This document shows positions 40,368 to 45,285 of a stretch of DNA of 64,000 nucleotides, in pieces. Made by a program: the position numbers and the translations under genes. This stretch comes from an uncultured delta proteobacterium. GTDB lineage: Bacteria > Myxococcota_A > Polyangia > Palsa-1104. Positions within the stretch are counted from its first letter, which is position 1; the number at the start of each line of letters is the position of its first letter. The DNA lies in the NCBI GenBank assembly GCA_963785725.1, contig CAWAWS010000019.1, positions 32,001 to 96,000 of the forward strand, read 5' to 3'. Below the pieces are notes generated by a model that was given only the letters and a program-made list of their open reading frames with translations, ran no database searches and was not told where the DNA came from.

Positions 40368-42015
40368 TCAGAAATAGACCCCTAATCCCAGCCCCGTTTG
40401 ATAGGTGGCCGCGGTCGTGGTGGACTGTTTGTTTCCGTCAGTGGTTCGCATGAAATAAGTCAGCCCAGCCACTTCCAGTCGCACATACAAACGGTGTGGG
40501 AGCGGCACTTCGAGCTGCCCGACGACACCCGCGAACGGCGCTGGCGCGCTGCGGCTCGGCGTCGCGGCCATGATCGTCGACGGTGGGTCGTGAAAGGCTT
40601 GCAGGAACGCGGCGACGCCGACCTCGAGCCCGGCGTCGAGCGTGACCGGTCCGAGGTCGAACGCGCGAATGGCATCGACGGCGGCGGAGAGCTCGCGCGT
40701 GTCGATGGTCCAGCGCGTGTTTTGCCGCGTGGAGCTCGAGAAACCGAGGCGAAACTCGAGCGAAATCTGCCGTAAATCGACGCGCGCGCCGAGCTCGGTG
40801 CGCCACGCGGTGCCGAGGCCGGCGATGTCGCCGCGCGCGCCGCCGTCGGCGAACAGCGAGCCCGAGAGGCGGCGCTCGGTGCCGCCTTTGCGGACGACGC
40901 GCGCATAGTCGATTCGCGCCATTACTTTCGGCTCTACTAAGGTGACCTTCTGCGCGCTGACGTCGAAGCGGCCCTGCTCGAGATAGTCGATGTCGCGGCG
41001 CGTAACGAAGTAGCGGCCGGCGTCGAGCGCGATGCGCGCGCCGCCATCGCTGGCGGCGATCTCGGCGACGACCGGGCCGTCGGTGCTGCTCTTGTGGACG
41101 CTATAGACGCCCGCTCGCGCGAACGCCAGCGTGCCGACGTCGCGATGCTCGGCGCCGGGGCGCGTCAGAATCGAATCTTCGCGACCGCCGAGGTCGAGGC
41201 GAAACGTCGGGTGCTGCGGGCCGGCCAGCGTGCGCGACGTCGTGGCCAGCGTGCGCTCTTTGGCGTAGGCGAAGGCTTCGCCGAGCGTCACGGCGCCGTC
41301 ACGATTGGTGTCGCCGGCGCCGAGCAGCGCCGAGACCAACGCGTGCGTGAAGAACGAAGCGCCGAGCGCGTCCGATTCCTGCGAGCTCTCACCGGCGGCG
41401 CTCGACGACAGCATGGCCACGCCGGTGGCGCCGATGGGAAACGACAGATCGATGTCGAAGGCGGCGGCGGGCGTGCCGCCTTTGACGCGCGTCATCGCGC
41501 CCGAGCGGCAGGCGTCGAGCGCGAGCACGCGCGCCGTCGCCGACGAGCCGGTGACGAGGTCGCGCAGCTCGTCGATGCCGAGGTGGGAGCCGTCGAGGTG
41601 CAGCGCGCCGGCGTCGGCGTGGCCCGAATAATAGACGAACATGAGCGAATCGCCGCCCAGCTGACGCACGCGCGCGTTGATGGCGATGAGCGCGCGCCGC
41701 ACCTCCGAGGCGCGCAGAATCGACGAGCGAGATGACGTTTTCGGGCTGGAATCCGCCGAGCGTGCGCAGCACGCCGCCGACGCGGGCCGCGTCCGATTCG
41801 GCGTAGTGCAAGACGACCTCATCGGCGTCGCCGTGGTTGTTGCCGATGACGACGGCGAAGCGGTTGGGCTCGGCGCCGGCGTTCGAAGCGACGGCGACGA
41901 CGCCGGCGAGCACGACGAGCAGCGCGAGCCGGCCCGGCCCGCGCCCTCGCCTGGCGGCGCGACGGAGGGCGAGCCACTGCCGAATGCGCGCCCGCGTCGT
42001 CCGCAAACGCGTCAT
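40368..42015 (-). CDS. Exported caspase-like peptidase (C14) with C-terminal beta-barrel-like region (frameshift near 41725)
   Basis: Signal peptide ending NAGA; RFAVVIGNN; YYSGHA (His); LDACRSG (Cys); ESDALGASFFT; ends GLGLGVYF. Confidence 0.85.
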
Positions 42016-42791
42016 GGTCCGCTCGTCTTCTCCATCATCCAATCGCTCTCGGCGCAGCCGGGCAAGTGTAGCTCGCCGGTGCGATGGGGATCGCGCGCCG
42101 CTTCGGTGAGCCGGGCGCGCGCGGCGTCGACGGCGTCGGCCACCGACTGCTCGCGCGGGCACAACAGCGCGACGACGCGCTCGGCGCCGGGCGTGGCGTC
42201 GAGCACGATGCTGCCCGGCATCGGCTGGCGCACGCCGCTCGGCACGTGTAGCCCGCGACCGCCGTCGGCGACATAGACCGAGACTTTGCCGGCGGCATCG
42301 AGGCCGAGCACGACGACGTCGCCCTCTTGGCCCGTCGAGAGCACGAAGCGCACGGCGTCGCCCGGATGCACGACGCCGCCCGGCGCGAGCTCGACGACGC
42401 GCCCATCCGCCTGCCGCGCCACGACCGACAATTCCAGCGGCAGCGCCTGGCCTTTGGTGCGCTCGTGACCGCCGGGCTTACGCCACATCGGCAGCAGCAC
42501 GACGAGCGCCAACATCGCCGCCGCGGCCGCGAACGTCTGCGTCGTGCGCACAATCGTTCGGCGCCACAAGCGCCGGCGCAGCTTACGCGGTCCGTCGGCC
42601 AGCACCAGCGCGGCGCGCACGTTGAGCCGGCGCAGCTCGGCCAGCCGCTGCGTGCACAGCGCGCACGTCGCCAGGTGCGTCTCGACGGTGGCGCGGGTGG
42701 TCGGCGCGCCGGCGACGATCCGGTCGAGCGTCAGATCGGACAGACAGCTGGGCGGACGACGCCGCCTTCCAAAGCTCATCGGCTCGATCAT
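42012..42791 (-). CDS. Zinc-finger (ZAS) anti-sigma-like membrane protein with a DUF4384/ActD-like outer domain
   Basis: HLATCALC (HxxxCxxC), one TM helix, ERTKG linker, VHPGDAVRF...SIVLDATPGAERV. Confidence 0.8.
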   Translation of the reverse strand: MIEPMSFGRRRRPPSCLSDLTLDRIVAGAPTTRATVETHLATCALCTQRLAELRRLNVRAALVLADGPRKLRRRLWRRTIVRTTQTFAAAAAMLALVVLLPMWRKPGGHERTKGQALPLELSVVARQADGRVVELAPGGVVHPGDAVRFVLSTGQEGDVVVLGLDAAGKVSVYVADGGRGLHVPSGVRQPMPGSIVLDATPGAERVVALLCPREQSVADAVDAARARLTEAARDPHRTGELHLPGCAESDWMMEKTSGP

Positions 42792-42926
42792 CGCGAGCAA
42801 TCTCCTCGGCACAGCCTCGGCGCTGCGGCTCGCTTCACTCCGTTCCGCTCGTCGATTTTCACGAGCAATCTCCTCGGCACAGCCTCGGCGCTGCGGCTCG
42901 CTTCACTCCGTTCCGCTCGTCGATCA
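42784..42926 (-). repeat. Tandem 68-bp-period repeat (two identical 63-bp cores), MIRU-like, each encoding a coupled mini-ORF
   Basis: Cores 42794-42856 and 42862-42924 are identical; TCGATCA occurs at 42784 and 42920, 136 bp apart; mini-ORFs at 42927-42859 and 42862-42788. Confidence 0.92.
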
Positions 42927-43421
42927 CCCAAGGACCTCCTCGGGCACGATGTCGAGCTGATCGCGCGCCGTATCGCGAAACTGCTTCAGTCGGTTGCGCA
43001 CCGTGCGCTCGGAGATGCCGAGCAGCTCGGCGATCTCCTCCTGACCCATTTGATCCACGTAGTAATAGATAGCGACCTCGGCCAGCTCGCGCGGAATGAG
43101 GCTCAAGAGCTGCTCGATGCCGATGCGATCTTCCTGCGAGCTCACGCGTTCCGCTTCGGCGAGGGGCATTTTGCGGGCGAGCGCGCGCCGTCGCCGGGCT
43201 CCGTCGCGAATGCTATTGAGGCAATGGTTGGTCGTCACTTGATAGAGCCAGGTCGTGAGCGCCGATTCGCCACGGAAACCCGGGAAGGCCTGGATCGCCT
43301 TCATGAACACCTCCTGCACCATGTCCTGGGCAGCGTGCTCGTCCCCCAAAAGGGTACACGCTCGCCGCAGCACCATGCCGCCGTAGGTTCGATAGAGAAA
43401 GTCTATCGAGGCCTGATCCAT
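42924..43421 (-). CDS. ECF-type RNA polymerase sigma factor
   Basis: AQDMVQEVFM, F.GES.LTTWLYQVTTNHCLN (region 2); QEEIAELLGISERTVRNRL (region 4). Confidence 0.93.
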   Translation of the reverse strand: MDQASIDFLYRTYGGMVLRRACTLLGDEHAAQDMVQEVFMKAIQAFPGFRGESALTTWLYQVTTNHCLNSIRDGARRRRALARKMPLAEAERVSSQEDRIGIEQLLSLIPRELAEVAIYYYVDQMGQEEIAELLGISERTVRNRLKQFRDTARDQLDIVPEEVLG

Positions 43422-43596
43422 CCCTCAGACCCTTTCGACACCAAGCGCGCAATGGAGCGGCAACACGATCCGCCCGTAACGATCGGCGTGAACATTCGGC
43501 GAACTTTTCGCCAGCAAACGGCTAATAATGTGACAAAACTGCTGTACTGACCAGTACGACCGCGTTAAGGTTCGCACTGGCCAGAGAGGTTGTCTA

Positions 43597-45285
43597 ATGG
43601 TGCAGTCCGCCCTCAGACGACTCGGCGCGCTCGTCGTAGCCGTCTCGTTTGGGCAATGCAGCAAGAGCGACACGCTGCCACTGATCACCGATGGTGATTC
43701 AGTGCGACTTCTCTCCGCCAGCGTTTGTCCCGACGGCGCCGACGCCAGCACCTTCGACGACACCAGCTGGTCGACGGCAAAGCTGCCGCTCGTCGGCGTC
43801 CCGCAGAGCGGCGCCTGTCTGCGCAAAGAGTTCAACATCGGCTCGTCGCTTCCCGACTATCGCTGGCTCGACATTCGGCTGACGAGCGGCTCGCAGGCGC
43901 GGCTCAACGTCGGTCCCGGCAAGGAGCAGATGACGGCCGGCGAGCAGGGCCTGTACTGGACCAGCTCCGACGATCCCGACGATCCGACGGCCAAGACGAC
44001 GACCCCCACCACGGGCACGGTCGTCGAATACACGCTCGATCTGCGACTTTTCCCGACGTTGTTGCAGCCGACGCAGAACGTGCTGGCGCTGGCGGTGCCG
44101 CAGATGCAGCAGTCGCTCGAGCTGGGCGCGATCTTGCGGCGCGATGACGGCTACGACAGCGCCTACGTCAAAGTCGTCAACGGGCCCTACTCGGTGCATC
44201 CGTCGACGACGGGCGTGCAGCTGCAGTGGGAGACCGATCGTTCGGCGCCGTCGTGGGCCGTGGTGGCCGGCGGCGAAAGCTACGACGGCGGCTGGAGCGT
44301 CCACCACGGCGTCGACGTGGAGTCGCTCGTTCCCGGCCGTTTCTACTCGTTTTATGTGTCGACGGCCGAATCGAGCGCGCTGCCGGCCGAGTGCCAGGCG
44401 GTCGGCGTGGACTCGGTGTCCGACACCGGCGACGACGATCAGCTCGGTCGCTACGTGCAGCGGCGCAACGATTGCCAGCAGCTGGCGGCCGCGGTCAAGC
44501 CGGCCGTCGCCGACATGCACACGGCGGCCGCCGGCGGCGTCACGCTCAAGGTCGCCATCGTCGGCGACACGCGCAGCTCGGCCACGTCGACCAACGCCAT
44601 CTTGGGCGCGCTCGCGGCCGAATCGCCCGACCTCATCGTGCACACCGGCGATCTCGTGGCGTCGGGCAGCGAGGCCAACTGGGACGGCTTCTTCACCGTC
44701 GGTGCGCCGGCGCTCTTGCACGCGCCCATCGTGCCCGTCATCGGCGAGCGCGACGTGACGCCGCTGGCCGACCGCTTCTCGCAGCTGTTCGCGCTCGACG
44801 GCACCACGCCGGCGGCGCACGCCTACTCGGTCGATCTCGGCGTCGTCCACCTGGCGCTGCTCGATTCCACCGCCGCGGTCGCCGGTCAGGCCGCGTGGCT
44901 CGACGCCGATCTGACGGCAGCCGAAGCCGCGGGCGCGCAACACATCTACGTCGTGACGCACGTCGGGCCCTGGTCGAGCGGCGCCTCGGGCGGCAACGCG
45001 TCGGTGCTGGCGACGATCGTGCCCATCATTCGCGCCCACAAAGTCGAGGCCATCGTGAGCGGCCACGACAACATCTACGAGCACGGCGTCAGCAACGGGC
45101 TCAACTACTTCGTCTCGGGCGGCGCCGGCGACACCGTCGACACGCTCGGCAGCCCGCAGCCGACGACGGTGCTGGCGCGCGCTGTCCCGCACTACGTCAT
45201 CCTCTCGATCAACGGCACGAGCGCGACGGTCATCGCCAAAGACGCCAGCGGCACAGCCTTCGACGCCGTCGCGCTCACACCGTAA
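43597..45285 (+). CDS. Exported purple-acid-phosphatase-like metallophosphoesterase with N-terminal accessory domains; partly degenerate motifs
   Basis: GDTR, HTGDLV, GERD (in place of GNHD/E), TH, GHDN (in place of GHxH); FN3-like segment. Confidence 0.75.
   Translation: MVQSALRRLGALVVAVSFGQCSKSDTLPLITDGDSVRLLSASVCPDGADASTFDDTSWSTAKLPLVGVPQSGACLRKEFNIGSSLPDYRWLDIRLTSGSQARLNVGPGKEQMTAGEQGLYWTSSDDPDDPTAKTTTPTTGTVVEYTLDLRLFPTLLQPTQNVLALAVPQMQQSLELGAILRRDDGYDSAYVKVVNGPYSVHPSTTGVQLQWETDRSAPSWAVVAGGESYDGGWSVHHGVDVESLVPGRFYSFYVSTAESSALPAECQAVGVDSVSDTGDDDQLGRYVQRRNDCQQLAAAVKPAVADMHTAAAGGVTLKVAIVGDTRSSATSTNAILGALAAESPDLIVHTGDLVASGSEANWDGFFTVGAPALLHAPIVPVIGERDVTPLADRFSQLFALDGTTPAAHAYSVDLGVVHLALLDSTAAVAGQAAWLDADLTAAEAAGAQHIYVVTHVGPWSSGASGGNASVLATIVPIIRAHKVEAIVSGHDNIYEHGVSNGLNYFVSGGAGDTVDTLGSPQPTTVLARAVPHYVILSINGTSATVIAKDASGTAFDAVALTP

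Follow-up and report, generated by a model that had tools for sequence, protein, structure and literature searches.

Mycobacterial interspersed repetitive units (MIRUs), for which the study of Supply et al. in 1997 is said to be the source, are the described repeats that come closest to the element reported here. The excerpts of PMC12548453 and PMC3184786 depict MIRUs as repeats of 40–100 bp that lie at start codons, contain a coupled open reading frame (ORF), are bracketed by direct repeats, and have empty counterparts; in the same excerpts, MIRUs serve as a typing tool and their spread is described only as apparent mobility. Other dispersed repeats share some of these traits. The Rickettsia palindromic element (RPE) and the betaproteobacterial repeat element (BRE) are GC-rich, vary in tandem number, and have copies inside coding sequences, according to part of PMC3110155. 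REP/BIME repeats with their RAYT proteins act as single-stranded DNA hairpin substrates, and some REPs bear GC-GNA-GC tips (excerpts of PMC2817692). The NTS/SRM repeats associated with the GIY-YIG protein Ssn are scattered hairpin repeats for which recognition as single-stranded DNA has been proposed (excerpts of PMC11893778).

Here, we analyzed a tandem repeat within a window of 64,000 nucleotides (contig CAWAWS010000019.1, positions 32,001 to 96,000) from an uncultured delta proteobacterium of the Polyangia. Its source genome is designated G000, other G-numbers denote the genomes compared, and L-numbers denote the element loci. A reading of the sequence alone had assigned MIRU architecture to the repeat. 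The likeness held for the size, since the dispersed unit of 68–72 bp falls within the MIRU range, for the location at start codons with an own ORF coupled at −4 in the same direction, and for the short direct repeats at filled sites, the empty orthologous sites, and the variable tandem number; a significant sequence match to the mycobacterial unit did not accompany it. The hosts are Myxococcota instead of mycobacteria, genomes contain 1–25 copies compared with 40–50, the fold has two arms on a three-way junction instead of one long hairpin, the duplicated word centers on ATCG and not on ATGA, and in-frame intragenic copies on either strand are frequent. RPE and BRE were compared by description only, and the consulted part of PMC3110155 describes no stop-start relay for them. 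Unlike the REP/RAYT system, our repeat forms head-to-tail arrays in a single orientation, has a GTAG foot at only 7 of 78 loci by a loose test, and has no Y1 transposase beside any copy. The published SRM motif matches 1 of the 78 loci, and no single-domain GIY-YIG gene flanks the element. With regard to MITEs, the terminal stem of the consensus is only 3 bp long and the duplication length is variable.

The two-unit array at the sigma factor locus

The array lies on the minus strand between a gene for an ECF-type sigma factor and its downstream partner gene, with the following features.

42936..42941, minus strand: GAGGAG in the 3' end of the sigma factor gene, 8 nt before GTG
42924..43421, minus strand: ECF-type sigma factor gene, 165 aa (Pfam Sigma70_r2, 4e-17; r4_2, 4e-10; TIGR02937)
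42920..42926, minus strand: TGATCGA, left copy (target-site side) of the 7-nt direct repeat on either side of the 136-bp array
42859..42927, minus strand: mini-ORF 1, 22 aa, with its GTG start on the sigma factor stop
42852..42919, minus strand: repeat unit 1, 68 bp; folded core about 42922–42862; GAGGAG at 42875–42870
42788..42862, minus strand: mini-ORF 2, 24 aa, ending in ATGA on the downstream start
42784..42851, minus strand: repeat unit 2, 68 bp; folded core about 42854–42794; GAGGAG at 42807–42802
42012..42791, minus strand: anti-sigma-like membrane protein gene, 259 aa, with H-x3-C-x2-C, a hydrophobic stretch, and weak DUF4384 similarity
40368..42015, minus strand: caspase-domain gene, ATGA-coupled to the anti-sigma-like gene, with a frame change near 41720–41740

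The sigma factor stop overlaps the start of mini-ORF 1 as GTGA, and the order sigma factor, GTGA, 22 aa, GTGA, 24 aa, ATGA, and anti-sigma-like gene, as given by the sequence-only reading, was reproduced with exactly matching translations. The two 68-nt direct repeats that it had reported were likewise recovered at a spacing of 68 and with 96% identity; they agree throughout the inner 63 nt, and the three differences are all located at the inter-unit junction. The GAGGAG words stand where they had been placed, 7 nt ahead of the second GTG and 10 nt ahead of the ATG. The claimed boundary word TGATCGA (TCGATCA on the plus strand) occurs at two of the three boundaries, and the middle word is AAATCGA. 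The right end of unit 1 is the variant GTGAAAATCG, still giving a GTGA overlap, and the A of the downstream ATG comes from unit 2. In contigs of other copies from the sequencing runs X1 and X2, the unit junction at 42857–42858 has the form GTGATGATCGA, which contains both a −4 and a −1 overlap and is intermediate between the usual junction and that of the window.

The sigma factor has both region 2 and region 4.2, and the partner combines HxxxCxxC, which we take to be the motif named for ZAS anti-sigma factors, with a predicted membrane helix, as expected for a pair of an ECF sigma factor and a ZAS anti-sigma factor. The H-x3-C-x2-C residues are invariant in all five aligned orthologs of the 259-aa protein, and its matches to Pfam DUF4384 (E 0.01–0.03) and the NCBIfam antisigma model (E 0.014) are below the cut-offs; thus, we call the partner anti-sigma-like, and its anti-sigma role is a prediction from sequence. 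The GAGGAG in the 3' end of the sigma factor gene is also present in four same-genus orthologs. The frame change in the caspase-domain gene may be an assembly error. A search of the mainly open-access literature returned no paper that deals with an operon of this ECF/DUF4384/caspase type. The mini-ORFs likely pass ribosomes across the gap between the sigma factor gene and its partner.

Distribution of the repeat family

BLASTN, proposed earlier as the check for further copies, identified five at 86–89% identity at two other gene junctions of G000, so the repeat in the window is not a chance occurrence. Together with a sequence profile, it revealed eight copies at four loci in G000 (seven close units and one diverged), all at gene junctions, and the next-best profile match after the family copies had an E-value of 0.3. 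Besides the sigma factor locus, three units form a GTGA-ATGA-ATGA-ATGA chain between an MqnC-like gene and an amidohydrolase gene, two units lie between two acyl-CoA dehydrogenase genes, and one diverged unit lies between eutN and the next gene.

A covariance model of the element gave 88 matches in 9 of the 15 genomes of the host family; it also had matches in three of the four genomes of the sister family and in none of the 22 genomes of a third family. The most copies in one genome of the host family were 25, counted in incomplete assemblies with 150 candidates per genome scored. Among 150 other genomes sampled from the phylum, four had a single weak match each (E 1e-4 to 7e-4), which we left out of the counts. 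The class-level DNA match L008 was rejected as a family member because it failed the profile match. All 20 exact-pattern loci in the GTDB collection belong to Polyangia, Polyangium, Myxococcales, or (delta)proteobacterial metagenome-assembled genomes. Rfam gave no match at E-values up to 1 over 42000–43700, and we encountered no description of this repeat family or of a myxobacterial MIRU-like repeat in the mainly open-access literature searched. The same-genus genome G003, which is 99% complete, has no model match, and the family is hence patchy within one genus.

Units within one array are more alike than units of different arrays. Longer variants of 85–122 nt also occur (L007, L127, L132, L139, L141, and L334), in which extra hairpins replace the tip of arm 2 of the fold described below; the element is thus modular.

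Position and reading frame of the copies

The copies favor gene starts: at 33 of 70 scorable loci, the element stops no more than 25 nt from a start codon in the sense orientation, whereas random positions in G000 fall at sense gene 5' ends in 183 of 4000 cases (4.6%), and only 4 of the 70 loci lie antisense at a gene 5' end; these counts leave out six weak loci (L101, L112, L113, L114, L134, and L135), as do the ATCG counts below, and the loci are not independent because some sites are common to several genomes. At 21 loci, the stop codon of the upstream gene is located at the left edge of the element (L117, with an assembly gap, is not included, and the frames of L105 were set by hand). Twelve of them have a strict chain, 11 by −4 overlap and one by a fusion in which the element ORF joins the downstream N-terminus; seven chain with one looser hop, and two have no chain. 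In a phase-shift test, 54 of 96 variants with one or two added bases kept a strict path, mostly by fusion, and a shuffled null expected 6.5 of 13 relays; both nulls are too permissive to discriminate the relay.

At 14 loci, both flanks match one and the same G000 gene. The reading frame is preserved at 12 of them (eight copies in sense and four in antisense orientation), which provides the RPE/BRE-like trait of in-frame copies inside protein genes; of the other two, L113 looks open by eye, and L123 is in fact a junction between genes. In-frame inserts of 23 residues interrupt conserved proteins at L012, L016, L098, L327, and others, with hosts presumably related, by eye, to an epimerase, GyrB, a Ser/Thr kinase, and SucC. 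The unit length is 3n+2 in 13 of 15 relay loci and 3n in 13 of 16 intragenic loci, and GGAG is kept in 11 of 15 versus 3 of 16; these counts are descriptions and not independent tests because the lists were compiled by hand with the data already known and include orthologous sites. The automatic classes of the 78 loci include misassignments (10 'junction, no relay' and 11 'other'). Seventeen sister-family loci, examined later, use the same relay and in-frame modes, and seven further in-frame copies inside genes were recognized there by eye. Three different frames serve as the relay ORF (L001, L026, and L145); therefore, no peptide is conserved.

Some loci depart from these patterns. The 68-nt copy at L018 ends its host protein early. 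At L017 (about 1489–1503), a micro-ORF of four codons leads from the upstream stop (GTGA) to the ATGA of the first unit. At L025 (G000:C13 about 43835–43910), the eutN frame is open through the diverged copy for about 360 nt from its left edge and overlaps the next gene.

A conserved fold

The alignment of the copies indicates a three-way junction with an outer stem of 3 bp, the inner pair of which is G-C, A-T, or C-G. Arm 1 contains two tandem GA/GA mismatches, and its tip of two pairs is closed by a GNA loop; arm 2 consists of a variable stem, a GA/GA mismatch, and GGC-TGT-GCC. Among the 32 copies that defined the fold, 92.6% of the cells are paired with 71 compensatory changes, as opposed to 79.3% and 21 after shuffling. 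In a sequence-only alignment of 49 further distinct copies, the values are 88.4% and 80, compared with 78.4% and 26, with some remaining bias as these copies had been found with the structured model. The GNA loop is present in 25 of 32 and 40 of 46 copies, and two Watson-Crick pairs replace the third GA/GA in 8 of 45. Standard minimum free energy folding showed little excess stability (z 0.15 for the window; mean z −1.1 as RNA and −0.6 as DNA), and we relied on covariation instead because the energy model contains no terms for sheared GA pairs and DNA triloops.

GAGGAG forms the 3' strand of arm 2. It is paired by arm 2 in other copies and predicted to be about 0.7 unpaired in the window copies. 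We considered occlusion of the Shine-Dalgarno (SD) word, relieved by a ribosome on the mini-ORF, but it has no support in the window copies, given their mostly unpaired GAGGAG. The sequence-only reading had missed the fold, the in-frame copies on either strand, and the location of the SD-like word in a stem. The fold is kept in antisense copies inside genes (L003, L012, L028, and L098), and GCGNAGC is an unusually stable DNA mini-hairpin, whereas a related RNA oligomer melts far lower (excerpts of PMC13037366); these two observations led us to infer that selection acts on single-stranded DNA.

A pattern scan retrieved many mycobacterial RTGA-bounded repeats of 52–53 bp among the 80 loci listed out of 121, which we take to be MIRUs. 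Those at the loci listed can be folded into one hairpin that has three GA/GA tandems and a GC-GAA-GC tip, the 3' strand of which gives GAGGAG, with seven compensatory cells compared with 1.9 expected and with tip and SD fixed by the search pattern. Our structured model reached at best 20.8 bits on the listed repeats, which were preselected for an 11-nt motif, and the sequence profiles at best E 0.39 and 0.045. The mycobacterial repeats listed thus have the same folding grammar with no significant sequence match.

Empty and filled sites

All four same-genus orthologs of the sigma factor/partner site are devoid of the element, and their stop and start overlap directly as TGATG. The element is also missing from 13 other sigma/anti-sigma-like pairs, 11 of which overlap directly. 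The empty allele that had been predicted by deleting the array was found in run X1, in which a 560-nt contig passes from the sigma factor end GTGATCGA straight into the partner gene. The contig is 97% identical to the sigma factor gene, with 15 differences over 42920–43448; on its short side, 21 of 23 letters match the partner start in this single contig, a stretch shorter than the 31-letter bridging rule demands. A contig of run X2 extends from the sigma factor gene 56 nt into the element.

The comparison of orthologous loci, also suggested earlier, uncovered states of zero, one, two, and three units. The acyl-CoA dehydrogenase junction has no unit in G003, G004, and G012, one in G002, and two in G000; the MqnC/amidohydrolase junction has none (bare GTGA) in G003 and three in G000; and L105 and L002 differ by one unit versus at least two. 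Conversely, G000 is empty at sites filled in its relatives, with length differences of 68 (L011 and L018), 69 (L003, L012, and L016), and 207 (L014); other such comparisons are blurred by divergence, and six have no syntenic pair. In the empty ortholog of L014 (G000:C9 about 132514–132540), two micro-ORFs still bridge the gap through ATGA, ATGA, and TAATG overlaps.

At the MqnC-like/amidohydrolase junction (L146, L147, and L148), different spacers occupy the site in G001 (11 nt), G002 (59 nt), and G004 (38 nt), and every one of them is an open frame from RTGA to RTGA. These spacers independently suggest that the hosts may select for a stop-start chain. The 38-nt spacer is itself a short tandem duplication.

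Insertion sites and the search for an enzyme

Direct repeats of 6 nt or more flank the element at 16 of 78 loci, compared with 5.9% for swapped flanks, and the other 62 loci have none of this length. ATCG is found at the left edge of 28 of 72 loci and at the right edge of 21 of 72, with a background of 0.8%.

Y1 transposases and GIY-YIG/Ssn proteins were rejected as mobilizing partners because they neither co-occur with the element nor adjoin it. Y1_Tnp is absent from the carriers G000, G002, and G007 and present in four element-free genomes, and no element copy was detected near 30 Y1 loci (best E 0.023) or near 30 GIY-YIG loci (best E 0.006). Genomes have 1–3 GIY-YIG genes irrespective of the presence of the element. 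Separately, G012, G001, G008, and G010 contain 11–27 weakly Y1_Tnp-like genes per genome, placed apart from the element.

Discussion

The array is probably a lineage-restricted folded repeat inserted at the stop/start overlap of the sigma factor and partner genes, likely a non-autonomous mobile element, the mini-ORFs of which would relay translational coupling. The sense orientation, the stop/start overlaps, and the empty orthologous sites support the earlier proposal of a non-autonomous, coupling-preserving, MIRU-like element in a myxobacterial lineage. A host or transposon enzyme would recognize the folded single strand by its three-way junction, GA/GA pairs, and GNA triloop. Upon insertion, a few nucleotides of the target would be duplicated, frequently at ATCG, as found in genes starting with RTG-ATC-G, where the right end, as seen in the sequence, restores an ATG behind an SD. 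A ribosome that stops at the upstream gene might then re-initiate at the overlap and once more at every unit; for re-initiation, the excerpted review PMC12548453 gives −4 coupling as the basis. The direct repeats on both flanks may give rise to tandem arrays through slippage or unequal exchange. Selection would keep copies that leave the host gene readable, RTGA-chained 3n+2 units at junctions and mostly 3n units inside genes. The mini-ORF peptides would be by-products, and insertion might do little harm because coupling is relayed.

Several alternatives could account for parts of these data. An assembly duplication as the source of the second unit in the window is scarcely credible. The identity of the inner 63 nt, frame breaks elsewhere in the assembly, and the fact that none of the contigs from 4 of 21 sequencing runs spans both units would fit it, but the unit junction differs at three bases and yet keeps the RTGA overlap, it resembles the right ends at L006 and L011, arrays of non-identical units exist at other loci, and 98-nt contigs in three runs would fit tandem 68-nt units. 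Spread by gene conversion or microhomology-driven repair without any dedicated enzyme has more in its favor: several targets resemble the left end of the element (L018, L011, and L006), the direct repeats vary in length, the searches for Y1 and GIY-YIG enzymes were negative, and the greater likeness of units within arrays would follow. Nevertheless, unit boundaries keep their register with the outer stem at unrelated sites and in two families, and the compensatory changes imply that something selects the fold; we regard this explanation as unlikely.

The remaining two alternatives concern what the element does for its host. The sequence-only reading had suggested that copy number tunes the stoichiometry of sigma and anti-sigma factors, and such a selected dial could draw on the filled and empty alleles among close strains and on the possibility that each extra stop-start hop lowers or resets downstream translation. 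The suggestion found no support in the survey, since only 1 of 14 such pairs carries the element and most targets are unrelated operons: 1 of 78 loci is a sigma factor operon by reading of the flanks, and the others include acyl-CoA dehydrogenase, MqnC, and EutN operons as well as gene interiors. A dial is therefore very improbable. It is also unlikely that the fold acts in RNA, as a protein-binding site, stability element, or translation enhancer that was spread and kept by the hosts. Tandem GA pairs form in RNA, too, G-U-compatible changes occur, and the sense bias at 5' ends includes genes without a coupled upstream gene (17 of 78). However, the fold is equally kept in the antisense copies inside genes, Rfam holds no match, the sites are patchy across kin, and a GNA triloop closed by GC pairs is a feature of DNA mini-hairpins that is far less stable in an RNA oligomer (excerpts of PMC13037366).

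The preferred reading, a mobile folded repeat that preserves coupling, shows on present evidence no sign of a dedicated regulator or a new regulatory system. The relay architecture itself is already known from MIRUs; the novelty lies in the lineage, the fold, the sorting by length, and the grammar common with the mycobacterial repeats. This common grammar allows a broader, speculative reading, which we find doubtful as it stands: MIRU-like repeats of unrelated phyla might be one structure-defined class of single-stranded DNA elements with GA/GA stems and a GC-GNA-GC cap, moved by an enzyme. Because the GA/GA grammar spells GAGGAG on the 3' strand, a ribosome-binding site would be carried as a by-product, pre-adapting the elements to start codons, and the host context would sort 3n+2 units to junctions and 3n units to gene interiors. 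If so, the present family, for which near-identical strains have either empty or filled alleles, would offer a handle on the movement of MIRUs, and the DNA fold could serve as bait in the search for the mobilizing enzyme.

For annotation in this lineage, the inserts are a warning, as they add 23-residue loops and false N-termini to proteins. With the natural alleles of zero, one, two, and three hops, it would be possible to measure how well translation persists through a series of stop-start hops. This family differs in sequence from the MIRUs but has their lifestyle, together with a covarying fold and both the relay and the in-frame mode, which indicates that coupling-preserving insertion is a general solution.
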